Notes: generated by a model from the sequence alone, not told the origin. A DNA stretch of 64,000 nucleotides from Gemmatimonadota bacterium (GCA_003222035.1 QHUS01000045.1:2615-66614); one strand, 5' to 3'; numbered from the stretch's first letter, positions 1 to 57,665 are shown. Translations and numbers: made by a program.

Positions 1-7
1 CACCCGC

Positions 8-1141
8 GTGGAATACGATCCGGCGAAAGTCGAGGGCGCATACCGCGCGGCGCTCGAGCAGAACCCGGAAGACGGGGTGGCGCTCAACAACCTGGCGTTA
101 CTGTTCAACGAGCGAAGGCGATTCGCGGAGGCCGAATCGCTTGCGGTGCACGGGATCACCGTCGCCCCGAACCAGTGGGCGCTGTACGTCAACGCCATGC
201 AGGCGCAGGTCGGGCAGGGCAAGTTCGCCGACGCGAGTCGGACGGCAGCGTTGTTCGAGCAGCGGGCGCCGGCCAACCCCATGAAGCATTTCATCCGGAT
301 CGGCCTGGAGGCGGCGCAGCGCAAGTACGAACAGGCCGAGACCGAGACCCAGGCGGCCGCGCAGACGATCCAGGATCTCACGTGGCAAGCCGCCGGGGCG
401 AGCGAGCTCGCCTCGCTCTACCTGGTGCAGGGGAAGCTCGCAGCGGCCGAAGCTCAGTTCCGCCGCTCGATGGCCCTCAACGAGCAGCGCGGCGTGCCGG
501 GGAATTATTTCGAGAACGCGTTCAGCCTCGCCGTTATCGATGTGTTCTTCCGGAACGCACCCGAGGCCGCGCGCCGCGAGGTCGAGGCGGCGCTGCGCCG
601 CTATCCCTTCGCCACCATGCCCGCCGCGGACCGGCCGTACTCCGGACTCGCGTTTCTGTACGGGCACATGGGCCAGCCTGACCGCGCCAAGCAGGTCATG
701 GCCGAGTACGAGGCAGCGGTCCCCGAAGCGATCCGGCGCAGGCAGCCGTTCCGCCACGGCGCCGCGGCCGCGATCGCGCTCGCGGAGGGGCGCGTCCAGG
801 ACGGCATCAAGGGATATCGGGCATGGTACGACGAGGATAACTGCTCCGTATGCGGGCTGTACCTGGTGGCCCGCGCCTACGAGCGTGCCGGTGAGCGCGA
901 CTCGGCGCTCGCTGTGTACGAGCGCGCCGTGACGACGCCAGGATACAGCCGTTCGTTCGAGGAAGCAGCCACGCTGGGGCCGACGTACAAGCGCCTGGGC
1001 GAGCTCTATGAGGAGCGCGGCGATACCGCGAAAGCTCGCGATTACTACGGACGCTTCGTGGACCTGTGGAAGAACGCGGATGCCGAGCTGCAGCCGCAGG
1101 TCCGGGAAGTGCGCCAACGCCTCGCCAAGCTCACCGCGTAG
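8..1141 (+). CDS. TPR-repeat protein, probably 5'-truncated at the window edge
   Basis: 377-aa ORF. The frame stays open back to base 2. Repeated helical A/L/Y-rich motifs typical of TPR (ALNNLALLFNERRRFAEAE, ARAYERAGERDSALAVYERAV, LGELYEERGDTAKARDYYGRF). Confidence 0.7.
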   Translation: MEYDPAKVEGAYRAALEQNPEDGVALNNLALLFNERRRFAEAESLAVHGITVAPNQWALYVNAMQAQVGQGKFADASRTAALFEQRAPANPMKHFIRIGLEAAQRKYEQAETETQAAAQTIQDLTWQAAGASELASLYLVQGKLAAAEAQFRRSMALNEQRGVPGNYFENAFSLAVIDVFFRNAPEAARREVEAALRRYPFATMPAADRPYSGLAFLYGHMGQPDRAKQVMAEYEAAVPEAIRRRQPFRHGAAAAIALAEGRVQDGIKGYRAWYDEDNCSVCGLYLVARAYERAGERDSALAVYERAVTTPGYSRSFEEAATLGPTYKRLGELYEERGDTAKARDYYGRFVDLWKNADAELQPQVREVRQRLAKLTA

Positions 1142-1157
1142 CACTCTCCCCGGCGTC

Positions 1158-1610
1158 TCACCCCCTGCCCAGCGTCGCCGCGAACAGTGCGATCAGTCCG
1201 AACGTCCCCGCCACCGTCGCCGCAATGATCTGACGTTTGCGGAGCCTGTGGAATGCCTCGGGGAGCTGCCCGCCCTGCGGCTCGAGCCGCGCCAGCTTGG
1301 CCGCTGTCGGCACGCTGATCGCGACGACCCCGAGCGCTCCCAAGATGCCAGCGACCATCATAAGGCTGACCCAGCCGGGCATGGCGCCCGAGCGCATGTA
1401 GGGTTGGCCGAGGATGATGCCCGACAGGACCACGGCGATTGCGCCCGGTCCGACGAGTACACGCTGAATCACGCCGATGAGACGATAGGCCGAGAGCCGC
1501 TCGGTCGTCCCGAGCCGCTTGGCCGTCACACCGGCCACCATCGTGGCGATTCCGCCGCCGAGCCAGAGCGTAAACCCCAGGACGTGCACCAGCAGCCAGA
1601 ACCCCCTCAT
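1158..1610 (-). CDS. small 4-TM integral membrane protein (DUF2269-like)
   Basis: 150-aa ORF with four hydrophobic segments (FWLLVHVLGFTLWLGGGIATMV etc.). Overlaps the next gene by 4 nt. Confidence 0.55.
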   Translation of the reverse strand: MRGFWLLVHVLGFTLWLGGGIATMVAGVTAKRLGTTERLSAYRLIGVIQRVLVGPGAIAVVLSGIILGQPYMRSGAMPGWVSLMMVAGILGALGVVAISVPTAAKLARLEPQGGQLPEAFHRLRKRQIIAATVAGTFGLIALFAATLGRG

Positions 1611-2023
1611 CCTCTGCCTCCCACGGTCACCGGTATCGGTTGCCGGCCCCCGTACCCGGTTTCGAGTTCATGCCAGTGCTCGATCTTTTCCTCCCCGATC
1701 TTCCAGCACCAAAACATCTCCCGGCCATCGAGCTTGCCGTAGAAATCGACGAGCCCCGGCTCGAATCCTTTGAACACGCACCCGATCTGGTCCAGCTCGA
1801 GCAGGAAGTCGTTGATCTGCTTCGCCACCTCGTCGATGCGGGCGCGGAGCGCGAGCTGCTCAGTGGATTCGCCCCATTCGGGACGCGACTGGGTGGCGAC
1901 GACTTCATACTGCGCGACGAGATCGCGCCACTGGGGGTGAAGCGCGATCAAGTCGGCGACGATACGCTTCACGAGGGGCAGCGTACGGTTGGCTTCTGCC
2001 AGAGTGAAATATTTACGGGGCAC
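1607..2023 (-). CDS. DUF2203-like protein
   Basis: 138-aa ORF. N-terminus MPRKYFTLAEANRTLPLVKRIV matches the characteristic DUF2203 start as I recall it. Confidence 0.55.
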   Translation of the reverse strand: MPRKYFTLAEANRTLPLVKRIVADLIALHPQWRDLVAQYEVVATQSRPEWGESTEQLALRARIDEVAKQINDFLLELDQIGCVFKGFEPGLVDFYGKLDGREMFWCWKIGEEKIEHWHELETGYGGRQPIPVTVGGRG

Positions 2024-2044
2024 AGAAGTAAGTAGTTGCCGTTT

Positions 2045-2467
2045 CTATTCTCGAACGATCACGATTCCCTGTATGAACTCGGGATGTGGAATAAACCCCA
2101 CGACCCTCTGATTCCCGTCTACCACGACGATCGTCGATCTGATGTGCGTATCCTTGTCGTCCAGCCTCTCGATCCTGTATCCCTCCAATTCCGTATCGAG
2201 CGTCACCACGACCGTATCCTGGCGCGCGTGCGTCTGTACCTTGCACGTCATGGGATCGTGACCCGCGGCCACGCACGCCGTCACGATATCGCGGTCCGAG
2301 ATCGTGCCCATGTAACGCCGGTCCTTGGGATTGTCCACGACCGGCACGACCGAGATGTCCTTCGCGCGCATCAGCAACGCCAGCTCGGCGCTGGTGGCAC
2401 CGGCGGCGGCGACAAACGGCTCGGGGATCATGATCTCACGGGCGAGCAATGGCACCCCTGTTATCAA
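2045..2467 (-). CDS. CBS-domain pair protein
   Basis: 140-aa ORF with two CBS-like units (ISVVPVVD..., GTISDRDIV, TIVVVDGNQRVVGFI). Confidence 0.75.
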   Translation of the reverse strand: MITGVPLLAREIMIPEPFVAAAGATSAELALLMRAKDISVVPVVDNPKDRRYMGTISDRDIVTACVAAGHDPMTCKVQTHARQDTVVVTLDTELEGYRIERLDDKDTHIRSTIVVVDGNQRVVGFIPHPEFIQGIVIVRE

Positions 2468-2505
2468 GTGAGCTTCGCGTGGTTACGCGAGCGAACTCGC
2501 GGCTC

Positions 2506-3342
2506 TTAGCCGCGCCCTAATGTATGAGCCAATGCCTTTTTCGCTTCGCGATACCCTGCCTCGAAGTACCGTTGCCCCTGCCCCACGGCAAACGTCGCCT
2601 CCCGCTCCGCCACCGCCCGAACGAACACGAGCCGCGGCGCGTCCTCGGGCCATTCGGCGACCGCGCGCTCGGTTTGCGCCGCCATCATGATCCGGATCGC
2701 CTCGCCGTGCGCCCGCACGAGCGGCGGAATCGCCGCCTTCTTGTCGACGGGCGGCTCATCGAACCCCGGCCCGACGTGCACCGCCACCACGAGATCGACG
2801 GGGGGAGGGGGGGGAACTCGCCGCGCCACCTCGAGCGCGACCACCGCGCGCAAGCCGCCCTCACCCACCCGCCGTCCATCGATCACCTGAGGCGGCAGGT
2901 ACAACGGGAGCGCGCAGGAAGCGTACAGCGCATCGATGAGCGGCCCATCCTGCCCCAGCGCGCCGAACAGCACCAGCTCACCCGACTCCATGTCGGTCGT
3001 CGTGATGGTGAGTGGGATCTTCATGTCGGCGAAGCGCGTGACGGGAACGAGCCGCGCGATCGTGCGCTTCAGGGGCTCGGGCTTCAAGATGTTGCCGGCG
3101 AACACGCCCTTCGCGAGCGACCATGCGTCGAGCGCCGCGAAATCCTTCTTCCCGAGCGACAGCGCGATCTCGAGGATCCGCTCGGGACTCGACCCGGCCG
3201 CGAGCGCGGCGCCGATCACCGCGCCCATGGACGTCCCGATGATGTGGGAGGGCCCGATATTCGCTTCGCGGAGCGCCTTCCACGCACCCGCATGAGCCAG
3301 CGATTTTGCCCCGCCGCCGCCGAGCACCAGCACCACCCGCAC
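2506..3342 (-). CDS. patatin-like phospholipase
   Basis: N-terminal glycine-rich oxyanion motif VLGGGGAKSLAHAG and nucleophile elbow GTSMG (GxSxG). 278 aa. Confidence 0.85.
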   Translation of the reverse strand: MRVVLVLGGGGAKSLAHAGAWKALREANIGPSHIIGTSMGAVIGAALAAGSSPERILEIALSLGKKDFAALDAWSLAKGVFAGNILKPEPLKRTIARLVPVTRFADMKIPLTITTTDMESGELVLFGALGQDGPLIDALYASCALPLYLPPQVIDGRRVGEGGLRAVVALEVARRVPPPPPVDLVVAVHVGPGFDEPPVDKKAAIPPLVRAHGEAIRIMMAAQTERAVAEWPEDAPRLVFVRAVAEREATFAVGQGQRYFEAGYREAKKALAHTLGRG

Positions 3343-3360
3343 CGCCCCGCCCCTCCCTAA

Positions 3361-3460
3361 CGCGGAACGCGGAAGGCGGAACGCGGAACATCCGGGTGGG
3401 CCTCGTGGGGCGCCACGACCTCACACGTCTGTTCCGCGTTCCGCGTTCCGACTTCCCCGT
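3361..3460. repeat. palindromic heptamer-array element (GCGGAAC arrays inverted to GTTCCGC arrays)
   Basis: Left arm cgcggaacgcggaaggcggaacgcggaac (3361-3389). Right arm gttccgcgttccgcgttccgacttcccc (3431-3458). Loop of about 41 nt. Fills the spacer between the thioesterase stop (3461) and the patatin start (3342). Confidence 0.85.
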
Positions 3461-28740: not shown

Positions 28741-28770
28741 CGGGATGCGAGTCTGAAGGAGCGCATCCCG
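28741..28770 (+). terminator. hairpin downstream of the ECF/DUF4097 operon
   Basis: cgggatgcg-(12 nt)-cgcatcccg, a 9-bp stem 24 nt after the stop. No T-tract. ACGGGATGCG is also directly repeated at 28720. Confidence 0.35.
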
Positions 28771-28862
28771 CCTCCGCAACAATTCGGCCCTCCCCGCAAT
28801 ACCTCGGTACATAATTCCAGGCCTCGCCGCACCACCTTGGTCGTCTCCGAACCAGGGGTCCC

Positions 28863-31800
28863 GTGCTGCGAGACCTTCTCGCCCGCACCGAGCAGATCGA
28901 CGATCTTCGCCACCTTTTTGGGGCGCTCGGATTCCAAGTGGCGTGGGAGCCGGTACCGCCCGGGCCCTGGCTCGGTCCGGTGGAAGCCGAAGCGGCGGGG
29001 CTCGAGCGCGCGGCGCTGGTGGCGCGGCATGACGCGTTCCGCGTGTTCGCACTCGAGGCGCGCGACCCGGAGCGGGCAGCCCGCGCGGCGGCCCGGCGGC
29101 TGGCCGCACACGCCGAGCGGGGGCTGGCATGCGCGCTGGGCGTGGGTCCGCGGCGTCTCGTGTGCGCCACCTGGCGCCCGGCGGCGCGCGGACCCGTCGC
29201 GCGCGTCGCCACCGTCGCCCTGGACCAGCCGTCTGGCAGTTCGCTCGCGACCCTGGAGCGGCTCAGTCCCGTCGCGGGGGAGACGTCGCTCGCGCTGAGC
29301 CTGCGGGTGGGCGAGGCGCTCGCCAGCGAAGGAGTCACCCCACGGTTCTTCAAGGCGTTCCGGGTCACGCTCGAGCGCCTCACCGATCGCCTTCCGGCCC
29401 CCCGCAGCCGCACCGAGCGTCACGCCCTGGCGCTCACTGCCCTCACCCGAGTGTTGTTCCTGTACTTCGTCCAGGCGAAGGGCTGGCTGGACGGAGACCG
29501 GCGTTACCTCATCCATCGTTTCGACGAGAGCGCGACCGCCCGCCGCCACTTCCATCGCCATGTGTTCGATCCGCTGTGCTTCGGTGCCCTCAATCGGCCG
29601 GTCGGAGAGCGCTCCGGCGCGGCATGCGCCCTGGGCAATCTGCCGTTTCTGAACGGCGGTCTGTTCGAGCCGACCGGCCTCGAGCGACGCCACGGGCCCG
29701 CCCGGTGGTCCAACGCCGACTGGCGTGATGCCTTCGACGATCTGTTCGAGCGCTTCCACTTCTCGGCGCGGGAGAGCGAGGACGGCGCGACGGTCGCGCC
29801 CGACATGCTGGGCCGCGTCTTCGAGGGCGTGATGGACCCGATAGAGCGCCGCGCCAGCGGCAGCTATTACACGCCGGCGGCGCTGGTGCGGGAGATCGTG
29901 CGTTCCGGCCTTGCGGGGGCGCTCGTGCATCGGTTCGGCCTCGCTCCGCGAACCGCCGAACGCTGGCTGCATGACGGAACGCCCCCCGACGGCACGGCGA
30001 CGCGCCCCGACCTGCGGCGACTGACCGTTATGGACCCGGCCGTCGGTTCGGGAGCGTTCCTGCTCGGTGCACTCGAGGAGCTGACCCGGCTGCGCTGCTC
30101 CGCGGGTGAAGGGCCCGCCGCGGGCGTGCGCCGGGACGTGGTGGCGCACTCGCTCTTCGGAGTGGACCTGAAGCTCACGGCAGTCCGGCTCGCCGAGTTG
30201 CGCCTGTGGCTCGCGCTCGTCCAGGACCAGGACGAAACAGACCTCAGCCGGATCGCACCCCTGCCGAACCTCGATGGGCACGTGCGTCAGGGGGATGCCC
30301 TGCTCGATCCGCTCACCCTCGCCCGCGCGCTCGGCGGCGTGCCCATGCTGTGTCCGGACACTCCGTCACGGGAGGTCGAGCGGCTCGCCATGGCCCGGCG
30401 CACGCTCTTCAATCTCGCCGGCCCCGCCAAGCGGCGAGCCTCGGACGAGCTGGTGCGAGCGGAGGCGGCGCTCGCGCGTCGACTGCTCGCGGCTGGCGTC
30501 GCGGTGCTCGAGCGGCGCGCGGGGGAGCTGGTGAATGCGGGCAAGGATCGCGACCTGTTCGGACGACGCCGCGGCCTGCGCCCGGACGAGCGCGCCCTCT
30601 TGCGCCGGCTGCGGGCCGGCCGCCGCGACCTGCGCGCGGCGGCGCGGCGCCTCGCGGACCAGGGCGAGGCGCCGTTCTTTGCGTTCGAGTCCCATTTCGC
30701 CGACATCCTGGCACGCGGCGGGTTCGATCTGGTGGTGGGGAATCCTCCATGGGTGCGAGGCGAGCGGGTGCCCGCCCAGGTGCGCGAGACGCTGGAAACG
30801 CGCTATACGACGTGGCGACCGGCCCACGAACGCGGGTTCGCCCATCTGCCCGACCTCGCGGTGGCGTTCGTCGAGCGGGCGCTCGAACTCGCGGCGCCGG
30901 GCGGAACGGCGGCGTTGCTGGTGCCCGCGAAGCTCGCGTCGAGCGGGTACGCCGAGCCGCTGCGACGCCGGCTCACGGAGAGCACCTGTCTCGAGTGCGT
31001 GGCACCGCTCGCGGCCGCGAGTGCCTTCGGCGCCGCGGTCTACCCCATGGCGATCGTGGCGACGCGAATCGAGCCAACCGGACGGGAGCGCGTGGCTACC
31101 GCCCTCGGCCCGAAGAGCACGACCCCCGCGATCCCGCAGCGCGCGCTCGCCGGAAGCGGTCCGTGGATCCTGGCCCACGATGCGACGCGCATCGCCCGCC
31201 ACCTCCAAACCTCCTGCCCTACCGTCGGCGATCGCTGGGCGACGCAACTCGGCGTCAAGACCGGGGCGGATGATGTATTCCTGGTAGCGCAGCCTGGCCC
31301 GGTGACCCGGCCTTGCGTGCGCGGGCGGGACCTGCGGCCGTGGGTGGCGACGCCCCGCATGCATGTGCTGTGGCCACACGGCGCCGACGGTCGACCGCTC
31401 GCCCGACTCCCGGCCGAGCTGGCCCGCGCCCTCGAGCCGCACATCGCGCGGCTTCGTCGCCGCAGCGATTATCACGGCGGACCGGCGTGGCAGCTGTTCC
31501 GCACAGCCCTCGCCGCTGCGCCGCACCGCGTGATCTGGCCGGACCTCGCCCGGCGACTCGCGGCGGTGGTTCCCGACGCAGAACTGGTTCCCTTGAACAC
31601 TGCATATGGGATCGCGACGCGTACTCGGGAGGATGCCGACGCGCTCGCGGCCCTCTTCAACTCGCGCTGGCTCACCGCGCTCGCGCGTCTCCGCGCCGAC
31701 CCGGCGCGCGGCGGGTTCCGGCGGTTCAACGCGCGCGTCGTCCGGGGACTGCCGCTGCCGCCCGCGGACGCGGCGGCGTGGCGGGCGCTGGCGGACCAGG

Positions 31801-31901
31801 GACGACGCAATATGGCCGACGACGACGCGATCGCGAACCTGTATCAGCTCGATGCCGCGGACCGCCGTGCATTGGACGCATCAACCGCGGATCCTCTCTG
31901 A
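28863..31901 (+). CDS. large gamma-class N6-adenine DNA methyltransferase (Eco57I/type IIG/PglX/DrmMI-like) with a TaqI_C-like specificity domain
   Basis: [32 protein letters not shown] motif [16 protein letters not shown], motif [14 protein letters not shown]-terminal [12 protein letters not shown]. 1012 aa. No clear nuclease motif in the N-terminal 200 aa. Confidence 0.85.
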
Positions 31902-34167
31902 GCACCTCGCGCCGCTCCCGGAGCCGCTCGCGTGCCTCCTCACGCCAACGGCGATCGAGGAAACCTCGCCGGCCGCGGTCGCCGCACTCGGGGCGCGGGC
32001 GCTGCTCGACTGGCCACCGCAGCCAGCCGCGTCGAGGCCCACGTGGCCGCGATGGCTCGCGCCACATCAGGTCCCCGCCGCGGAGCGGCTCGCGGGCATC
32101 CTCACTCGCTACAACGGCGCGCTGCTCGCCGACGCCGTGGGCTTGGGCAAGTCGTACGTCGCGCTCGCAGTCGCCCTCGCGTTCGGTGAACCCTTCGCTC
32201 TCGTGGTGCCAGCCGTCCTGGTTCACCAGTGGCGTGCCTTGCTCACGCAGCACGGTGTCAGCGCCCCTATCATCACCCACGAATCGCTTAGCCCGGCCCC
32301 TTGCCGCCCATTGCCGACTGGTGCCGCCCTCTGCCGCCTTGTCGTCGTGGACGAAGCCCACCGCTTCCGGAATCCCGACACCAACCGGTACCGCGCCATC
32401 GCGAAGCTGGTCGTAGGACGACGCGTTCTGCTGGTCACTGCCACGCCGGTTCACAACCGGATGGCGGACCTGTTCCACCTGTTTCGGCTCTTCCTCCGCG
32501 ACCACGATCTCACGGCGCTCGGTGTGCCCTCTCTGTGGCGCGCTGCAGGGGCGGGGGCGGATGCGGATGGAAACGCCGTGATAGCTGCGGCAGCCCGGCT
32601 GTGCGTCGCGCGCTCGCGCGAGCGCGTACGGACCGACTACCCTGCGGTGCCGGCAATGGGCGCGTTCCCCAAACGCATGGCTGGGGAGGTGCTGCGGGTC
32701 GGTACGGCCCCTGCGGCGCGACTCTGCGAGCTCGTCACCGCGATCGGCCGGCTCGATGCGGGAGGCGAGGCCGCGGGCTTGTTCCGGTTGCTCCTCTTGT
32801 CGCAGCTCGCCTCCAGCCTGCCAGCGTTCCGGGCGAGCCTCGGCCGGTACGAGGCATTCCTCGACCTGAGCACGGCCGCCGCCACGGAGGGACGGTCACT
32901 CCAACGCAAAGACTTCCGGCGGCTGTTCCCCGCGGGATCGGACGACCTGCAGCTCGCGTTCTTTCCTCTGGTGCTGCCCACCGGACCCGGCGCCGTGGCC
33001 GCGCGGGACCGGGAGCTCGTGCGCCGGCTGTGCGCGCTGGCGGCCTCTCCCCTGGATCCCAAGGCCGACGTGCTCGTCGGGCTGCTCGCACGCCGGACGG
33101 GCAAGACGATCGTCTTCGCGCAACCCAGGGCAACAGTCCGTCACTTGGTCGGGCGACTCCATGGCCTCCGTGTGGTCGCGATCACCGGGGAGCGCGGCTG
33201 GTTCGGGACGACTCCCGCCGGGCGCGATGAGGTGCTCCGCGCCTTCGCGCCGCGCGCGCAGGGCGCATCCCTGCCTGCCCCCGCTCTTCAAGCCGACATC
33301 CTCGTGACGACCGATCTCCTGAGCGAGGGTCTGAATCTCCAGGACGCCGTGCGCGTGATCCACTACGATCTGCCCTGGAGTCCGGCGCGGCTCGCCCAGC
33401 GTGTGGGCCGGATCGATCGCGCCGGGTCGCCCCACTCGCACATCGAGACCGTGACGTTTCTACCGCCGGGCCCGCTCGCCGATGCCCTCGCGCTGGAGCG
33501 CCGCCTGATCGCGAAACGACGCCTGCAAACGCGCGCCGGCGCTGGGCCGGGCGGGTTCGACTGGTGCGATCGTCTGTACCATCTCGCTGCCGAGGGGGCG
33601 CCGCCCGCCGCGGTGGGGACCTGTGCCGCCGTCGCGACCGGATCGGAAGCCGCCGTCGTCCTCATCGTGCGGATCGGCGAGCGGGTGGAGAGCGTGGTCG
33701 TCACGGAAACGGGCGTTCACGCGGATCCAGCCCGGGCCACGGGGCTGCTGGAGCGAGCGGGCCACGCAACTCCAGTCCCCTGCGACCGCGCGACGCTGGA
33801 CCAGGCCATTCGGCGGGCGGCACCGCTCCTCCGGAGCCGGCTCGCGTCCCTCGAGGAGTGCCGCTGGCGCGGGGGCCATCGCGACCGCCTCAGCCGCCGG
33901 CTCATCCCGTGGGTTCTCGTGGCTGCGCGCCGCGCCGCCAGGCAGCGCCGTCACGTCGAGCTCGACCGCCTTGACGCGCTGGTGTCGCGCCTGGCGCTCG
34001 GGATGACGGCGGGAGAAGAGCTGGAGCTCGAGGAGCTCGTCACGCGCGCGGCGCCGCTCGCGGTGCGCGAGGTGCTGGCGTGGCACGAACGCCTGCCGCC
34101 GCTCGCGCCCGATTCCGCGGCGCCACACCTGGAGCTCGTGGCGGCCCTGATCGTCGAGACCGCGTGA
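31852..34167 (+). CDS. SNF2-family helicase/translocase
   Basis: Motif [10 protein letters not shown], motif [13 protein letters not shown], motif [13 protein letters not shown], helicase-C [12 protein letters not shown]...[24 protein letters not shown]. The only in-frame starts (ATG 31852, GTG 31867) lie inside the 3' end of the methyltransferase gene. Confidence 0.85.
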
Positions 34168-34168
34168 G

Positions 34169-35755
34169 TCACTCCGCGCCGAGCAGCAGCTCTTCCAGGT
34201 CGATCTCGCGCTGTACCCGTCGCATGACGGCGTCGCTGATCGCTCCCCGGTCACGCAGCCGGATCAACGCGCGTCGCTCCACGATCAGGAGCTCCAACAG
34301 AAGGCGTCGGTCGGCGGTGGAGATCGTTTCTTCGCCGCTGTTCACGACACCGTCGGCCTGGCCACGCAGCCGGCGGGTGCGGTGGCGATAGCGATCCTCC
34401 GTGTGAGCGAGCGTCTCCGGGTGCAGCCACTGCTCTTGGGAGAGCTCGTGCAGGCGCGCGAGCGCCGCTTCCGATACCTCGAGGCGCGCCGCGATCTCCT
34501 CGCGCCGCTCGTCCACTCCAGTTTCTCGAACGCCGAGCCAACGCGCGAGCGGCGCGAGCGTGAATCCTTGTCCCAGCAGGGTCACCAGAATCACAGCGAA
34601 CGTGATGGCGATGATCGCGTCACGGCCGGGGAACGGCACGCCCGCCGCGGTGGTCGTGGGAATGGCGGCGGCGAGAACCAGGGATTCCGCGCCCCGCAGG
34701 CCGGCCCAGGCCACGATCGTCGGATACTGCCACGGCGGGTACGGATCGCGTGCGCGCACGCGCCTGCTCAGGAGTCGCGGGAGGTAGGTCGCGGGATAGA
34801 CCCAGACGAAGCGAGCGACTATGACGGCGAGGCAGACCAGGACGGCGCCGCCCGCGAGTACGAAAGCGCCCGACCCGCTCAGGCTGCCGACGATTGGTCG
34901 CAGCCCGAGACCGGTCAGAATGAAGATCAACCCCTCTATCATGAAGACCACGACGTCCCACACGCCCGTGCTCTGGACGCGGGTGTCGGCGGCGATGATG
35001 CGCGGGCCGACACGACCGAGGTAGAGCCCGGTAGCGACCACGGCCAGAATTCCCGATACGCCGAGGTGTTCCGCGGGGAGATAGGCCGCGTAACCCGTGA
35101 GGAGGGAAATCGTGTTCTCGACTTCGGGGTCGTGGATGCGGCGCCGCACGACGGCGAGCACCCGCCCCACGGCGAGCCCGACGACGATTCCTCCCGCGCC
35201 CACCAGCAGAAAACGACCGCTCGCCACGACGAGCGAGAACGAGCCGGTGACCACCGCCGCGACCGCCATGCGATATGCCACGATGGATGCGGCGTCGTTG
35301 ATCATGCTCTCGCCCTCGAGGACGGTCACCAGACGCCGCGGTAGGGAGAGGCGACGGAGAAACGCTGTGGCCGCGGCGACGTCGGGCGGCGACACGACGG
35401 CGCCGAGGGCGAACGCCGCGCCCCAGGGCAATCCCGGCACCACGAGGTGCGCCACCCACGCCACGACTACCGTCGCGAACAGGACGTGGCCCACGCCCAG
35501 CAGGAGGATCGGGCGCAGGTTTGCGCGCACGTCGCGATACGACGCGAGCAGCGAGGCGCGGTACAACAACGGCGGGATGAAGACCAGAAACACGAGCTGT
35601 GGGTCGAACTGAATCGTGGGCAGGCCCGGGAGCAGCGCCGCGAGCAGCCCGCCGACGAGAAGCATCGCGGGCGCGGGCACCGCCAGGCGCCGCGCGGTCA
35701 GCGCCAGGAGGGCGACACCCACGAGCAAGGTGAGGACGGTCTCGAAATGATGCAT
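34169..35755 (-). CDS. Na+/H+ antiporter (CPA1/NhaP type)
   Basis: 528 aa, multi-TM. VSPPDVAAATA and LEGESMINDAASIV motifs, cytoplasmic C-terminal tail. Confidence 0.85.
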   Translation of the reverse strand: MHHFETVLTLLVGVALLALTARRLAVPAPAMLLVGGLLAALLPGLPTIQFDPQLVFLVFIPPLLYRASLLASYRDVRANLRPILLLGVGHVLFATVVVAWVAHLVVPGLPWGAAFALGAVVSPPDVAAATAFLRRLSLPRRLVTVLEGESMINDAASIVAYRMAVAAVVTGSFSLVVASGRFLLVGAGGIVVGLAVGRVLAVVRRRIHDPEVENTISLLTGYAAYLPAEHLGVSGILAVVATGLYLGRVGPRIIAADTRVQSTGVWDVVVFMIEGLIFILTGLGLRPIVGSLSGSGAFVLAGGAVLVCLAVIVARFVWVYPATYLPRLLSRRVRARDPYPPWQYPTIVAWAGLRGAESLVLAAAIPTTTAAGVPFPGRDAIIAITFAVILVTLLGQGFTLAPLARWLGVRETGVDERREEIAARLEVSEAALARLHELSQEQWLHPETLAHTEDRYRHRTRRLRGQADGVVNSGEETISTADRRLLLELLIVERRALIRLRDRGAISDAVMRRVQREIDLEELLLGAE

Positions 35756-51660: not shown

Positions 51661-52095
51661 ATGAAGCACTGGGCAGTGCTCGCGGCGCTGATCGCGCCCG
51701 CAGCGGCCGCGGCGCAGGCTCCGCCCGCTGGCTCGACGGAGCCCTTCGTGGTGGAGTACTACTACAAGGTCCGCTGGGGTTACGCCGACGAGTTCATCCG
51801 CCTCTTCAAGAAGAACCACTACCCCGTTTTGAAACGCCAGATGGAGCTGGGGCACATCCAGACCATCACGGCGGAGGCACCCAGGTTCCACGGCACCGAG
51901 GACGGCCGCTGGGACTATCGCGTCACGCTGGTCTGGAAGAACGCGGCGGCGCCCCATGAGCCGTTCCCCGAGGCGGAGCTCAAGCGCCTATTTCCCGACC
52001 AGGAAACCTTCCGGCGAGAGGAGCAGCACCGCTTCGAGATCCTCGCCGCGCATTGGGACCTGCCGGTGGTTACGGTGGATTTGACCCGGCCCTAG
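51661..52095 (+). CDS. secreted hypothetical protein (small alpha+beta barrel-like)
   Basis: GAGGAGG upstream of ATG 51661. Signal peptide [20 protein letters not shown]. No motif recognised. The 3' end overlaps the convergent lhr by 26 nt. Confidence 0.5.
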
Positions 52096-55000
52096 CCGGG
52101 GGGCCTGGCGCGGGGGGGGAGGGGGGGCGGCGGCTGGTTTTCCCGAGATAGGCTCGCACGAGGGGCGCCACGCGCCCCCGCACGAGCGCGGACTTGAAGA
52201 CATCCCGCTCCTCCGGCGTCACGTCCAGCAGGTACCGCTCCCCGCTTCCCGCACCCTCCCTGATGGCGACCGGGATGCCATCGCGATACAGAATTCGGTT
52301 CGTCGCGAGCCCGGGGACGACGTCTCCCGGCGTCACGATCCCGATCAGGTTGAGTGGATCGGCCCCGCTCACGGCCACGAGCTCGCCGGCAGGCGCCGCG
52401 CGCCGCACACTGCGTAACAGACCCACTGCCTCGGGCAGTGCGTACTGTTCTCCCGAGAACCCGCCTACGAAGCGCCCACCGCGGATCTCGCCGCGCGCTT
52501 CGAGCCGCCGGTACACTCGGAGAATGTCGCGCCACGGCGTGAGCAACGTCTCGCGCGTGACCAGCCTCCTGAATACCACGCCGTAGCGTCGCAACAGCTG
52601 CCACGCGACGGCCTCGGCGACCGCGTCCTCCGGCAGAGGCGTCGGGGCTCGAACGCGCGACCAGCGTCCGGCAGTCTCGACGCCGAACGGTGCGACCTTG
52701 CCCCGCCGCCGGAATCCTCCGATCGGACGCCGGCGGTCGGAGGGCACCAACAACGCGCGCAGCCCGGCGAAGCTGTCGGCGGTGACGAGTCCCCAGGCGA
52801 CCAGCTCGCCGAGCCCCTTCTCCACCTCCGTGCGCAGCAGGCCGGTCGCGTTCACCAAGTCGCCAAAGAACGACGCGCCGCGTTCGCCGAGCGCATCGCT
52901 CACCGCGCGGGCGGGATGCGAGAGCGGGAGATCCGCCGGATCGGGGTGCACCGCCAGGGACCGCCATACCGCTCCCCGCTCCCTGCGAAACAGCGCCACT
53001 GGGGTCGTGCGGATCGGCCCGGACTTGTGTCCGTTCGACGGCGCAGCCGGGGACAGCCGGCCCCAGGCGATCTCTCCCGACAGGCACAGGCCGTCGAGCC
53101 ACAAGGGGTCGTATTCACCGAGCCGCGCGGGCAGGACATCCGATTCCCAGGCACCTGCCGCCACCTCGTAGCCGTCGAGCTGCTCCAGCACCGCGGCGAG
53201 GCCTTCCGGCCCCTCGGCGCGCGTGTCCGACGCGGCGCGCTGCCAGCGCAACAAGAAGCGCATGAAATCGGCCGGCGCGACCGGCTCGATCTCCTGGCGC
53301 AGCCGATCGAGCGTGTACCGATGGATCCGCGCGAGCAAGCGGCGCTCGCACCACTCGAGCTCCACACTCCCAGGGGTGAACCGTCCGCGCAGCACGAAGC
53401 CTTCGTGCTCGAGCGCGCCAAGCGCGAAGTCCACGTCGGGAACGGGGACGCCGAGTGCCGATCCGATTGCGGCGGCAGTGGTCGGCCCTACGACTTCGAG
53501 CCGCCCGCGCACCAGCTCACGCAGCGCGTCCTCGCGAGTCCACGCCTTCGCCCGATCGCGCGCTGGCACGCTGAGCGCTGGCTCCGTGAGCGCGCCCGGG
53601 AAGGCCGCTTCGAGCATTGGCACGCGCTCGGCCGCCACCCACAGGCGGGGCTCCCTCAACAGCGTCGCAGCGCGTTTAGCCCGCACCAGCTCATTGAACG
53701 CCTCTTGCCAATCCACATTCCGCAATCCGCAATCCGCAATTGGCACCGCGCCCGCCACCATCAATGCATCATGCAGCTCGTCGGCGCTCCCGACCTCCGG
53801 CCACGCCTCGTCCCTCACGCGATCAATCGCCGCTTGATCGAGCCTCCCCAGCTCGTCCGCGGTCTTTACGTCGAGTCCGCGTCGCGTGATCACCGCCTGG
53901 GTGCGACGCTCCTCGAGCGGGGCGTCATCGAGGAACGCGTACGGCTTGGCGTTGATGACCTCGTGGGCAAGGGGAGACGGCTCCGTGGTGTCTCGCGCCA
54001 CCAGCGCGACCTGGCCCGATGCGATCGCCTCGAGCACGCGCTTCAGGCCGGGGAAATCCATGGCCTCGAGCAGGCAGTCGGCGATCGTCTGGTTGACGAG
54101 CGGGTGGTCCGGGATCTCGCGGTCGCCGACGAGGTTCTCGGGGCAGGCGAGCTGGTCGGGGAACACCGCGGCGACGAGGTCCTCTGCGTCCATGCGCTGG
54201 AGCGGGGTAGGCACCTTCTTCCCGCCTCGGGCCCGCAGCACGGCGAGCGCCCGCGTGGCGTTCCAGCGCCACCGGGTGCCGAACATCGGCGCATCGAGCA
54301 TCGCCTGCACCAACAGATGCTCGGCGGTCTCGGGCTTGAGGTACTGGAACACGTCCTCGAGCGGGAAGCTGTGCTGGGGGCCGAGCGACAAGACGATCGC
54401 GTCCTCCGTCGCCGCCGCCTGCAGCTCGAAGTTGAAGCTGCGGCAGAACCGCTTCCGGAGCGCGAGCCCCCACGCGCGGTTCACGCGGCTTCCGAAGGGC
54501 GCGTGCAGCACCAGCTGCATCCCACCCGCTTCGTCGAAGAACCGCTCCAGCACGAGCGTTTGCTGGGTCGGGATCACCCCGAGGATCTTCTTGGACGCGT
54601 CCAGATACTCGACGATCTGGCGGGCCGCCGCCTCGGGGAGGCCGGCGATCTCGCCCGCCAGCCAGGCGGTCGCTTCGCGGGCATCACCCAGCCGATCGCC
54701 GATGTCCTGGCGCAGCCGTGCGACCGCTTCGGACAGCTCGGCGGTCCGACCCGGCGCCTCACCCAGCCAGAACGGGATCGATGGCGGCTGACCCTGGGCG
54801 TCCACGACGCGGACCTGGCCGGACTCGATCCGCTGGATGAGGTACGACCGGTTGCCCAGCTGGAAGATGTCGCCGGGCGTGCTCTCGATGGCGAAGTCCT
54901 CGTTCAGCGTCCCGACGAACGTCTCCGTGGGCTCGAGGATGACCCGATAGTCCCCGACATCGGGTATCGCTCCACCCGACGTGAGCGCGGCGAGTCGGGC

Positions 55001-56449
55001 ACCGCGTCGCGCGCGCAAGCGGCGGTTCACGCCGTCGTAGTGGACGTAGGCGCCGCGCCGCCCGCGCCGCGTCGTGAATCCTTCGGCGAGCATCTGCACC
55101 ACGGCGTCGAAGTCCTTGCGCGAGAGATCGCGGTACGGGTACGCCCCCCGCACCAGCTGGAAGAGCGCGTCCTCGGCCCATTCGTCGCCCGCGACGGTGG
55201 CGACGATCTGCTGCGCCAAGATGTCGAGCGGACGATCCGGAATGATCAGCCGGTCGAGCTCGCGCCCGCGCGCGGCCCGCACCAGTGCGGCGCACTCGAT
55301 CAGCTCGTCGCGCGACAGCGGGAACACCCGGCCCTTCGGGATCGCGGCGAGGTGATGCCCCGAACGGCCCACGCGCTGCAGGAACGTCGCGATCGAGCGG
55401 GTCGAGCCGATCTGGCAGACGAGGTCCACAGTGCCGATGTCGATCCCCAGCTCGAGGGATGCCGTCGCGACCAGCGCTTTGAGCTTGCCTTCCTTCAGGA
55501 GCGTCTCCGCTTCCAGGCGCTTTTCCCGAGACAGGCTGCCGTGGTGCGACGTCACCTGGTCCGCGCCGAGACGTTCGGAGAGATGCAGGGTCAGGCGTTC
55601 CGCGAGTCGCCGGGTGTTGACGAAGACGAGCGTCGTCCGGTGCTCAGCGATGAGCTGCACCAGTCGCTCGTGGATCTCCTCCCACACCTCCGCGGCCATG
55701 ACCGCCTCGAGCGGCGACGACGGGATCTCGATGGCCAGATCGAGCGTGCGCGCGTGTCCCGAATCGATAATGCAGGTGTCGGGTGTTGGGTGTCGGGTGC
55801 CGGAAAGGAACGCGGCTATGTCCTCGATGGGCTTCTGTGTCGCCGACAGGCCGATCCGCTGCAAGCGCCGGCCGGCGAGGTGCTCCAGCCGCTCGAGCGA
55901 CAGCGCCAGGTGGCTCCCTCGCTTGTCGCGGGCCACCGCGTGGATCTCGTCCACGATGACAGTGCGCACCGGGCGCAACATCTCGCGCGCGCGCTCCGAC
56001 GTGAGGATGAGATAGAGCGACTCGGGCGTGGTGACGAGGATGTGGGGGGGGCGCCGTACCATCTCCTGCCGCTCCGCCCCCGGCGTGTCGCCGGTGCGCA
56101 CCAGCGTGCGAATCTCGACATCGGGCAGGCACAGTTGCTCGAGCATGCCCCGGATCTCGACCAGCGGCTCGGCCAGATTCTTCTGGACGTCGTTCGAAAG
56201 CGCCTTGAGCGGCGAGACGTACACCACCTGCGTCCCATCGGTCAGAGTCCCGGCGAGACCCTGCCGCAGCAGCGAATCGATCGCGGTCAAGAACGCCGCG
56301 AACGTCTTGCCAGACCCGGTCGGCGCGGCAATCAGCGTGTTCTTGCCGGCCTGGATCAACGGCCAGGCACGCTGTTGCGGCTCGGTGGGCGCGGGAAACC
56401 GGGACCCGAACCAACGCTCCACGGCGGGATGAAAGCCCGACAACGACAT
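52070..56449 (-). CDS. lhr: Lhr-family large ATP-dependent DEAD/DEAH helicase
   Basis: 1459 aa. N-terminus FHPAVERWF...[12 protein letters not shown]...[33 protein letters not shown], and the long Lhr-type C-terminal extension. Confidence 0.9.
53708..53743. repeat. heptamer array (GCAATCC-like) x5 inside lhr
   Basis: ccaatcc acattcc gcaatcc gcaatcc gcaattg. Complement of the ATTGCGG unit seen in nadE and imuB. Encodes [12 protein letters not shown]. Confidence 0.8.
55774..55801. repeat. heptamer array (GGTGTCG-like) x4 inside lhr
   Basis: ggtgtcg ggtgttg ggtgtcg ggtgccg. Encodes GTRHPTPDT. Confidence 0.8.
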
Positions 56450-56468
56450 ACTGAAATATGGCGAAGAT

Positions 56469-57665
56469 TTACCGAAGGAGCGACACCCCTCGGGATGCCG
56501 CGATCCGCTCGATCGTCTCCCCGATCTTGTTGTTCGGCGTCGACGCTCCGGCGGTCACACCGATAGTGCGCGGTCCCGGCGGCAACCACCCCGTCGCCGA
56601 CCGTTCCTCCTTCGCGCCAGCGGGGCGGAACCGAATCGTCCCCGCGTCCGGATCGATGCAGCTCGCGTCCTCGATGTGATAGGTCGGGACTCGCGTCTGG
56701 CAGATGGCGGCGAGGTGGGTCGTGTTGCTCGAGTTGTACCCGCCGATGACCACCATGAGGTCGAGTGGCTCGGCGATGAGCTTCAGCACCGCATCCTGCC
56801 GATCCTGTGTGGCGGAGCAGATCGTGTCGAACGTGCGGAAATGCTCCGCCAAGGCTGCCTCGCCATACCGTTGCACCATGCTCCGCCGTAGCTCGGCCGC
56901 GATGGCGAGGGATTCCCCCGAGAGCATCGTCGTCTGATTCGCGACCCCTACGCGCACCAGGTCGCGATCGGGGTCGAATCCCGCGGACATCTTGCCCGCA
57001 AAGGTCGAAACGAGCTGCTCCCTACTCCCGGCTCCCTCGATGTAGGTACACACGTCCCGTGCCTCGGCCATGTCCCGCACGACGAGATACTCGCCGCCCG
57101 GGTACTTGGTCACCTGGCTCGAGGTCGCCTTGGTTTCCTCGTGATAGTACTTGCCATGGATGACGGCGGTGAAGCCGTCTTTCGCATAGGAATCCACCCG
57201 CTTCCACACGTTCAGGACGGAGCCGCAGGTCGTGTCCACCAGGACGCACCCGATCGCACGCAGCCGCTCGAAGTCCTTCACGGTGACGCCGAAGGCGGGG
57301 AGAATGACGACGTCCGCGGGTGTGACCTCCCGGAAGTCGAACTCGCCATCGTCGGGCCGGTGCAGAAACTCGACGCCCATGCCCCGCAGCTTGTTGTTGA
57401 CGTGCGGATTGTGGATGATCTCGCCCACGAGGAACACCCGCCGGTCCGGAAACTTGGTGCGCGTTTCGTAGGCGTACTCGACGGCGCGGTCCACGCCGTA
57501 ACAGAACCCGAATTCGCCGGCGAGTTTGAACGTCAGATCGCCGGCCTCCAGGACGTGACCCTGTGCACGGATGCGGTCCACCACGCGGCTGTGATAGTCA
57601 GCCGCCAGCGCGCCCTCGATGTCTCCTTTGAGGCCGAACCCGCGCCTGAAATAGGTCTGCTCCAC
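56469..57665 (-). CDS. ispH: 4-hydroxy-3-methylbut-2-enyl diphosphate reductase (long form)
   Basis: [35 protein letters not shown] are typical IspH/LytB blocks. GTG start. 398 aa. Confidence 0.9.

Follow-up and report, generated by a model that had tools for sequence, protein, structure and literature searches.

A co-inherited adenine methyltransferase and SNF2 ATPase gene pair without a detected nuclease in Gemmatimonadota

A 64-kb stretch of DNA from the Gemmatimonadota bacterium GCA_003222035.1 (QHUS01000045.1:2615-66614), referred to here as the window and numbered from its first letter, encodes at positions 28863-34167 an N6-adenine DNA methyltransferase (MTase) followed by an SNF2-family ATPase/translocase, which we call the helicase. 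As judged from their sequences and those of related loci, the two genes form a self-contained two-gene operon that has intact catalytic motifs, is co-inherited and co-diverging, and has no detected nuclease or third partner. The pair was further shown to be inherited vertically at a fixed chromosomal site in Gemmatimonadota, under purifying selection like that on its housekeeping neighbors. Exactly two activities are recognizable from the motifs, a predicted S-adenosylmethionine-dependent adenine methylation and a predicted ATP-driven DNA translocation. We favor the reading that the products form a vertically inherited, nuclease-free MTase and SNF2 translocase complex that marks the host chromosome with N6-methyladenine (m6A), and regard the chance that this is right as about even. 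An earlier note on the window had proposed a minimal MTase plus translocase module outside the described types, and this proposal is supported by the lack of a partner, by profile scores below the cut-offs, and by the conserved adjacency of the two genes.

Gene organization and base composition

The pair is encoded by two overlapping open reading frames (ORFs):

28863..31901, plus strand: N6-adenine DNA methyltransferase gene (MTase, ORF A), 1012 aa, GTG start
31852..34167, plus strand: SNF2-family ATPase/translocase gene (helicase, ORF B), 771 aa, ATG start at 31852, within an open frame at 31606..34167
31852..31901, plus strand: overlap of the two genes (MTase 3' end with SNF2 5' end), 50 nt, or 35 nt if the helicase start is the GTG at 31867

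Both ORFs lie where the earlier note had placed them, and every motif that it quoted was found. Overlap or abutment of the two genes, which in the window probably couples their translation, is also seen in orthologous loci. The G+C content is 72–73% in the MTase-SNF2 stretch and ~68% in the window. The G+C at third codon positions (GC3) of both ORFs (0.83–0.84) equals that of the neighbor genes, and by this match the codon usage of the pair is native to the host. The G+C excess is found at the second codon position, which fits proteins rich in Ala, Arg, Gly, and Pro rather than foreign DNA.

Conservation of the gene pair among relatives

Searches with the helicase returned more than 1,700 matches, the best 120 of which are full-length and 60–74% identical. 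The few source-named relatives are Gemmatimonadales or Gemmatimonadetes proteins from metagenome-assembled genomes (MAGs), except for one contig binned as Chloroflexi, and MTase relatives show a similar pattern at 66–83% identity. With clustering at 50% and a threshold of E ≤ 1e-30, which is loose enough to take in other SNF2 families, the helicase has 1,180 matching representatives.

Sixteen window proteins were mapped onto 80 species-level loci from GTDB genomes. Adjacency of the two genes across relatives, which the earlier note had set as a test, held in 78 of these 80 loci, where the MTase gene immediately precedes the SNF2 gene in the same orientation and overlaps or abuts it. This arrangement spans helicase identities from 73% down to 32%, and it also occurs in Longimicrobiales (L070, L078, and L080), Planctomycetota (L082), Thermoanaerobaculia (L085 and L086), and a closed 5.5-Mb chromosome. 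The two exceptions are L083, with no MTase in the 900 nt available upstream, and L020, which is cut with only 34 nt left before the helicase gene. The ORF that lies upstream in L083 (213 aa) has no Pfam match and no similarity to the MTase.

One locus, L040 (QHUE01000183.1, Gemmatimonadetes MAG AG35), has the MTase and SNF2 proteins fused in one uninterrupted frame (3-3302), in which a short linker replaces ~45 residues of the MTase C-end and ~40 residues of the helicase N-end. Taken as a Rosetta-stone hint, this fusion suggests that these two ends neighbor each other in a complex. Fusions are not common in the family, given that the best 150 cluster representatives are 170–1123 aa long (full-length proteins being ~650–900 aa) and none comes near 1800 aa.

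The surroundings of the pair are conserved as well. In the close clade, defined by a helicase identity of at least 48%, the order of ECF sigma factor, anti-sigma factor, two DUF4097 genes, the pair, HAD, aminotransferase, PHO4, and PhoU is kept, and where contigs are long enough, most of the region from NicO and the ECF operon through the amino-acid permease is retained. PHO4/PhoU or HAD still lie beside the pair at 35–45% identity in several loci and in the closed 5.5-Mb chromosome, and a distant Gemmatimonadota clade has GH15 and DUF402 genes upstream and a HisKA protein gene downstream. Clustering of the flank ORFs of 24 distant loci yielded no third conserved gene and no defense gene. A third partner gene was accordingly rejected, as only clade-specific housekeeping neighbors were found in these 24 loci (DUF402, GH15, Pro_dh, GGT, a sigma-54 activator, and FG-GAP proteins).

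A phage origin was likewise rejected because the best relative among 2.9 million viral contigs is 31% identical and matches over the motor core only. Plasmids yielded no close relative; the SNF2 proteins found there, “helicase-related” and ~1100 aa long, are only remotely similar and were set aside as members of the pair because they belong to multigene MTase-DUF262-helicase loci of a different family. On pRadio5 of Deinococcus radiophilus (L122) and a plasmid of Nostoc sp. C052 (L123), an N6 MTase, a DUF262 protein, and small ORFs accompany the ~1100-aa SNF2 protein. By their gene content, these two look like a different multigene MTase-SNF2 locus of defense type that is remotely related to the pair (32–37% over the motor).

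Two further contigs, L081 (3.5 kb, binned as Candidatus Eisenbacteria) and P0053 (binned as Chloroflexi), are 65–68% identical to the window pair. This is as close as true Gemmatimonadales orthologs, and the contigs are probably mis-binned rather than a sign of recent transfer. Frameshifts were seen in L053 (4999-10249, both genes split), L055 (6891-9136), and L069 (5016-7849); assembly indels are the simplest account of these, and pseudogenization was not adopted, with real decay as a further possibility.

Domain architecture and family assignment

The domains of the two proteins were placed as follows:

28863..29297, plus strand: MTase N-terminal alpha/beta domain, residues 1–145, a compact fold (AF2 mean pLDDT 94.5)
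29298..29822, plus strand: MTase helical spacer, residues ~146–320, resembling the MmeI helical spacer and DUF7814
29859..30752, plus strand: MTase catalytic core with motif X (GSYYTP), motif I (DPAVGSGAF, 30027-30059), PLPNLD, and motif IV (NPPW, 30738-30752)
31053..31898, plus strand: MTase target-recognition domain (TRD), residues ~731–1012, with a TaqI_C-like 10-residue block (residues 797–806, 31251-31280)
32047..33471, plus strand: SNF2 motor, helicase residues ~66–540, with motifs Q (LAPHQ, 32056-32070), I (GLGKSY, 32140-32157), II (DEAH, 32350-32361), III (TATP, 32437-32448), and VI (33397-33429)
33472..34164, plus strand: helicase C-terminal domain, residues 541–771 (~230 residues), a small beta-sheet followed by a helical bundle (AF2 mean pLDDT 79)

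In Pfam, the MTase matches Eco57I (63.5 bits, cut-off 25.3), N6_Mtase, and MmeI_Mtase. It has the gamma-class order of motifs X, I (DPAxGSG), and IV (NPPW/Y) followed by a C-terminal TRD, with GSYYTP at residues 333–338, the 11-residue motif I block at 389–399 (DPAVGSGAF from 391), and GNPPW at 626–630 (NPPW from 627). Motif X, DPAxGSGAFLL, PLPNLD, and NPPW(V/I)R are invariant in all clades aligned. Residues 182–429 of MmeI (5hr4) align with MTase residues 185–451, and matches to MmeI_hel and DUF7814 are weak in the window MTase and clearer in orthologs. The best PADLOC model is DrmMI (2.9e-28), followed by Type IIG and PglX, all of them partial matches. Motifs III and IV are separated by an Arg-rich helical insertion of ~120 aa (residues ~490–610), through which the DrmMI model is collinear (residues 422–694 corresponding to model positions 666–939). 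The TaqI_C-like block pointed out in the earlier note is present, but the similarity to TaqI in the PDB is only weak in the window protein (E=0.007, residues 620–834; E=7e-4 in the ortholog P0390). A terminator-like hairpin with a T-rich tail was also found inside the MTase ORF at 30644-30675 (plus strand), in a scan whose total was at chance level (2 found, 1.5 expected).

The helicase matches SNF2-rel_dom (46 bits, cut-off 24.9) and Helicase_C (66 bits) in Pfam, and together with SNF2-rel_dom the motifs Q, I, II, III, and VI place it in the SNF2 family. These motifs are kept in all clades, and in the window protein GLGKSY occupies residues 97–102, DEAH 167–170, TATP 196–199, and the 11-residue motif VI 516–526. 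A 65-residue N-terminal extension precedes two RecA-like lobes, which are separated by a helical insertion of ~185 residues. The closest PDB sequence matches are RapA and the Sulfolobus Rad54-like SNF2 protein. PADLOC ranked DrmD first (5.9e-25), then DpdE and BrxH, all partial, with a weak match to HmaA (4.6e-15).

Neither protein reaches the equivalog level of a described family. The NCBIfam model scores, given as bits against the cut-off, are 85 for DrmD (NF038317, 84.9 against 610; NF038318, 75.5 against 950), 105 against 500 for DpdE, and 53 against 576 for RapA, and the PglX models gave 37–58 bits against cut-offs of 400–900 (best NF033451, 57.7 against 400). The earlier note had named placement by hidden Markov models in a described complete system as the outcome that would speak against its proposal; every equivalog score lies far below its cut-off, and no contiguous partner occurs in the window or in the 80 loci.

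The same note had suggested that the MTase N-terminus and the helicase C-terminus be checked for nuclease folds, and the predicted structures of both, searched against the PDB, were negative. For the MTase N-terminal domain, the best Foldseek match of the AF2 model was TrmA (E=0.04) with no nuclease, a profile search against PDB sequences gave no match, and no acidic, lysine, histidine, or other polar residue is invariant in the cross-clade alignment of residues 1–150. In the window clade, D57 and E65-x-R67 lie on a beta-hairpin of this domain, as in PD-(D/E)xK enzymes. A PD-(D/E)xK remnant or degenerate nuclease was not adopted for this hairpin because the positions occur in one clade only and fold searches gave no support.

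For the helicase C-terminal domain, Foldseek against the PDB found nothing significant (the top matches, all non-significant, were RapA) and a profile search against PDB sequences gave no match. The cross-clade alignment of residues 541–771 contains no invariant polar residue, and the identity to distant orthologs is 21%. This domain may be a partner-binding or DNA-binding part. RapA and BrxHII are described as carrying an inactive restriction endonuclease-like domain after the SNF2 core (10.1101/2025.10.09.681413), which is a lead for the helicase C-terminus and not a result.

Mode of evolution

The identities of the MTase and SNF2 proteins to their window counterparts are correlated across loci (Spearman 0.90–0.95). 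The identity of the pair also follows that of the housekeeping flanks (Pearson 0.74–0.80), although the rank correlation is only 0.49–0.56 (Spearman). Mean identity is 68% for the MTase, 58% for the SNF2 protein, and 56–78% for the flanking genes. In eight close pairs, dN/dS (Nei-Gojobori) was 0.10–0.18 for the MTase, 0.12–0.27 for the SNF2 protein, and 0.07–0.29 for the flanks. The TRD taken alone gave a dN/dS of 0.11–0.23 and a mean identity of 64% in the close clade, near the whole-MTase value, and by these measures the specificity domain is under purifying selection and not hypervariable. The co-divergence, the dN/dS values similar to those of the flanks, and the stable TRD point to a vertically inherited resident pair and not to a defense-island system under diversifying selection.

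Genomic neighborhood and expression signals

Upstream of the pair, on the same strand, the window encodes an extracytoplasmic function (ECF) sigma factor, a zf-HC2 anti-sigma factor, and two DUF4097 proteins. Downstream there is a convergent Na+/H+ exchanger gene, followed by genes for a HAD hydrolase, an aminotransferase, an ornithine cyclodeaminase, PHO4, PhoU, and an amino-acid permease. These flanks agree with the ECF-sigma operon and Na+/H+ antiporter that had been described in the earlier note. The exchanger gene (34169-35755, minus strand), which lies between the SNF2 and HAD genes, occurs in only part of the close clade (loci L014, L015, L018, and L020-L036 compared), and since HAD directly follows the helicase in the other close-clade loci, it represents a later insertion or was lost there.

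Pfam and PADLOC scans took in 40 window ORFs, with a handful of shorter ORFs left out. No DrmA/B/C, PglZ, BrxC, BrxL, or phospholipase D (PLD) protein was found among these 40, in agreement with the earlier statement that the 64 kb hold no known defense partner. The further ORFs scanned are housekeeping genes (DnaE, Lhr, LytB, MsrA, a DtxR-type repressor, and a porin). Elsewhere in the window, defense models matched only an Lhr helicase and a patatin-like lipase, which each lie more than 18 kb from the pair and have no partners. The 1494-aa Lhr-type helicase (52070-56554, minus strand) has DEAD_assoc and WH_Lhr domains and scores 1712 bits with the PADLOC DpdJ model; it is a generic Lhr that this model also catches, and neither DpdA/B/C nor any further Dpd gene was found among the ORFs scanned. 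The patatin-like phospholipase (2506-3420, minus strand) matches the PADLOC CBASS “Effector phospholipase” models (E=1.7e-16), and no cyclase or CBASS gene was seen nearby.

Two elements precede the MTase gene:

28742..28769, plus strand: GC-rich hairpin (GGGATGCG-12 nt-CGCATCCC) just past the stop of the upstream DUF4097 gene, read from the sequence
28795..28818, plus strand: promoter-like box CGCAAnAnnnCGGTAC(C/A)TAAT(C/T)C, ~45–65 nt upstream of the MTase start

The hairpin probably terminates the transcript of the ECF-sigma operon. It has no T-run and was hence not listed by the terminator scan, and inverted repeats of different sequence occur at the same place in orthologous loci. Among 33 orthologous upstream regions that were aligned, most keep the GGTACCTAAT core of the box (GGTAC(C/A)TAAT) but not the sequence around it, and this conservation suggests that the box is the pair's own promoter; a scan with the sigma-70 consensus made no call there. 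Control of the pair by the upstream ECF sigma factor was rejected because the MTase has its own conserved upstream box and the linkage to the ECF gene is found only in the close clade. A conserved hairpin of the 5' untranslated region over the ribosome-binding site was also considered and is unsupported (RNAalifold, -0.15 kcal/mol, with 1 of 4 pairs covarying).

Proposed function and alternatives

In the reading that we favor, the MTase and the SNF2 protein would act together as one complex. The TRD, held in a single chain with the MmeI/DrmMI layout, would read a short asymmetric site at which one adenine on one strand is methylated. The SNF2 motor would be tethered near the MTase C-terminus, and this ATP-burning motor may move the complex along DNA or clear bound proteins, thus letting the MTase find and re-mark sites that are left fully unmethylated after replication. 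The most likely origin would be a DrmMI/DrmD-like (class 1 DISARM) or Type III mod-res-like module, either after loss of its nuclease or without ever having had one. The role may be a lineage-wide m6A mark on the host chromosome for housekeeping (gene regulation, replication, or repair), a proposal for which we see the odds as evenly balanced, and keeping out unmethylated foreign DNA would at most be a secondary function. A bolder version, which we hold only tentatively and consider the less probable outcome, is that a bacterial phylum has the pair as a vertically inherited, dedicated “writer plus remodeler” fixed in its chromosome, in which the SNF2 ATPase serves solely to let a site-specific m6A MTase maintain the mark, as a prokaryotic counterpart of DDM1/LSH-DNMT that, like Dam or CcrM, was domesticated, here from a restriction or DISARM-like ancestor. 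The earlier note had offered a defense system and an epigenetic or chromatin system as its two options; both are retained here, and the balance has shifted toward an epigenetic or chromosomal role over typical mobile defense by the fixed site, the co-divergence with the flanks, the purifying selection on the TRD, and the absence from viral contigs and plasmids.

Several points weigh against the favored reading. The best-matching model families of both proteins (DrmMI, PglX, and Type IIG for the MTase; DrmD, DpdE, and BrxH for the helicase) are defense components, and in Planctomycetota and Thermoanaerobaculia the pair has unrelated flanks, as would fit a self-sufficient module that was transferred horizontally. 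Some restriction-modification (R-M) systems are core to their species, so vertical inheritance is compatible with defense. The helicase relative in L083 (903-3773, 956 aa, 38% identity) has no MTase within the stretch available upstream, and the fusion in L040 is known from a single 8.4-kb MAG contig and is either natural or an assembly artifact. The members are all known from MAG or metagenome sequence only, and the 80 loci count helicase-carrying loci and not the share of Gemmatimonadota genomes, which leaves the label “core gene” unsupported by this number. Finally, the one-strand methylation of an asymmetric site is suggested by family resemblance only.

The main rival is a minimal, nuclease-free defense system like BREX or DISARM, in which the MTase would mark self DNA and the complex would spot unmethylated incoming DNA, whereupon the motor would block replication or transcription, strip proteins, or recruit a host nuclease. 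We consider this possible and yet clearly the lesser probability. It would account for the top models being DrmMI and DrmD, which are specific to class 1 DISARM, followed by PglX, Type IIG, DpdE, and BrxH; for the mod-then-motor order with overlap, as in Type III R-M; and for the spread of the intact pair to other phyla, where its flanks are unrelated. In the Serratia class 1 DISARM, deletion of drmD together with drmMI left almost no protection against one phage, and DrmC (PLD) was not required (10.1101/2021.12.28.474362). Defense fits less well with a fixed chromosomal site and co-divergence with housekeeping flanks across deep divergence, with a TRD under purifying and not diversifying selection, and with the lack of defense-island neighbors in any clade surveyed. 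In addition, the pair was not found on viral contigs or plasmids, and no effector domain was detected in either protein.

It is also conceivable, and in our view improbable, that the pair is a decayed R-M system of Type III, ISP, or IIG ancestry in which the orphan MTase matters and the SNF2 protein is kept for an unrelated job, such as RapA-like recycling of RNA polymerase, remaining adjacent by operon inertia. RapA is the best solved-structure sequence match of the motor and tops the non-significant fold matches of the C-terminal domain, the L083 helicase stands without an upstream MTase, and the MTase is more conserved than the helicase. However, the RapA match is limited to the shared SNF2 core and scores less than a tenth of the equivalog cut-off, and inertia is hard to reconcile with adjacency or overlap in nearly all loci down to 32% identity, with the tightly correlated divergence of the two proteins, and with the in-frame fusion.

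A hidden nuclease of new fold in MTase residues 1–145 or helicase residues 541–771, which would make the pair a true two-gene restriction enzyme like Type III or a split Type ISP, is very unlikely: the MTase N-terminal domain does sit where the nuclease domain of MmeI-type enzymes does, the window clade has the D57...E65-x-R67 hairpin, and both end domains are without an assigned function, but the D/E/R positions are not shared by the remaining clades, the helicase C-terminal domain has no polar residue invariant across clades, and the confident model of the N-terminal domain matches no PDB nuclease, with empty profile searches.

The nuclease-free chromosomal complex is the reading that we retain. 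Whatever the role, two activities stand alone here, and purifying selection has kept them together in an abundant soil phylum across divergence at the order level. A defense function would make the pair the smallest nuclease-free system and a clean model of BREX- or DISARM-like action without DNA cutting; with a housekeeping function, it would represent a new kind of epigenetic machinery in bacteria and one more restriction-type MTase that was domesticated. In both cases, the pair is a simple two-protein system in which to ask how an SNF2 motor serves a DNA methyltransferase.

Comparison with known systems

MTase modules with a superfamily 2 (SF2) motor are, to our knowledge, found only within larger defense systems (Type I, III, and ISP R-M, DISARM, BREX, and Hma), with a nuclease or effector present or suspected, and we know of no housekeeping MTase in bacteria that has an SNF2 protein dedicated to it. 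Our literature search found no paper on a stand-alone pair of this kind, nor on any MTase-SNF2 pair in Gemmatimonadota. The methylome of a cultured relative, Gemmatirosa kalamazoonensis, contains an unassigned asymmetric m6A motif, ATGCAC (PMC3974934).

Among single-chain enzymes, MmeI (Type IIL/IIG) resembles the MTase in having an N-terminal domain, a helical spacer, a gamma-class MTase, and a C-terminal TRD in one chain. Unlike MmeI, the MTase of the pair has no PD-(D/E)xK motif or nuclease fold at its N-terminus, and it comes with an SNF2 protein dedicated to it. Type III and Type ISP enzymes share with the proposed complex the probable marking of one strand of an asymmetric site and the use of an SF2 ATPase. 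In Type III R-M, the mod-then-motor order with overlapping genes and the combination of an MTase with an SF2 ATPase are similar, whereas the motor of the pair is of SNF2 type and not of Res/HsdR type, and its MTase is of the gamma class with a C-terminal TRD and not a beta-class Mod. The helicase also differs from the Type III and ISP motors in lacking any PD-(D/E)xK or Mrr nuclease signature or fold. The single chain of L040 is like that of the Type ISP enzymes LlaGI and LlaBIII, with the opposite domain order.

The multigene systems differ mostly in the partners that they require. From BREX the pair differs in that PglZ, BrxC/PglY, and BrxL were not found in the window ORFs scanned or in related loci, and in scoring below the PglX equivalog cut-offs; from Dpd it differs in that DpdA-C were not found among the ORFs scanned and in scoring below the DpdE cut-off. 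Hma, a system related to Type-1 BREX, consists of an SNF2 helicase-nuclease, a DUF1156 MTase, and a DUF499 ATPase, and its helicases are RapA-like in architecture (10.1101/2025.10.09.681413). It resembles the pair in combining an SNF2 helicase and an N6-adenine MTase in one locus, with a weak match to the HmaA model, but the pair has no DUF499 ATPase and no nuclease on or near the helicase, and its MTase is of the Eco57I/MmeI type and not of the DUF1156 type.

Outside defense, Dam and CcrM are functional analogs only, each being a lineage-wide, vertically inherited MTase with a stable specificity domain, and they have no sequence relationship to the pair beyond shared folds. The eukaryotic DDM1/LSH proteins that work with DNMTs offer another purely functional analogy, that of an SNF2 ATPase dedicated to a DNA methyltransferase.

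The closest counterpart is class 1 DISARM, which likewise combines a gamma-class MTase of Eco57I type with an SNF2 ATPase. The likeness that the earlier note drew to this system stands in that DrmMI and DrmD are the best PADLOC matches, and it does not extend to the DISARM core, as the contiguous DrmA (helicase), DrmB (DUF1998), and DrmC (PLD) were neither found among the 40 window ORFs nor kept in the 80 loci. The proteins of the pair are also shorter than the models (771 against ~1040 aa for the helicase; 1012 against ~1350 aa for the MTase), and the inheritance of the pair is vertical, at a housekeeping site and not in defense islands. The gene order given for DISARM by Ofir et al. in 2018 is reportedly the reverse of that of the pair, in which the MTase comes first. 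DrmMI methylates one strand of the asymmetric sequence ACACAG, and m6A methylation by DrmMI in class 1 DISARM reached 84% with the full system and 56.5% with the two methylases alone (10.1101/2021.12.28.474362), which provides a precedent for partners raising the methylation completeness of such an MTase. By analogy, the pair would operate most like the DrmMI and DrmD accessory pair of class 1 DISARM taken alone, and its novelty, as far as the sequences indicate, would lie in being a minimal, domesticated-looking form of the known modification systems that join an MTase to a motor.

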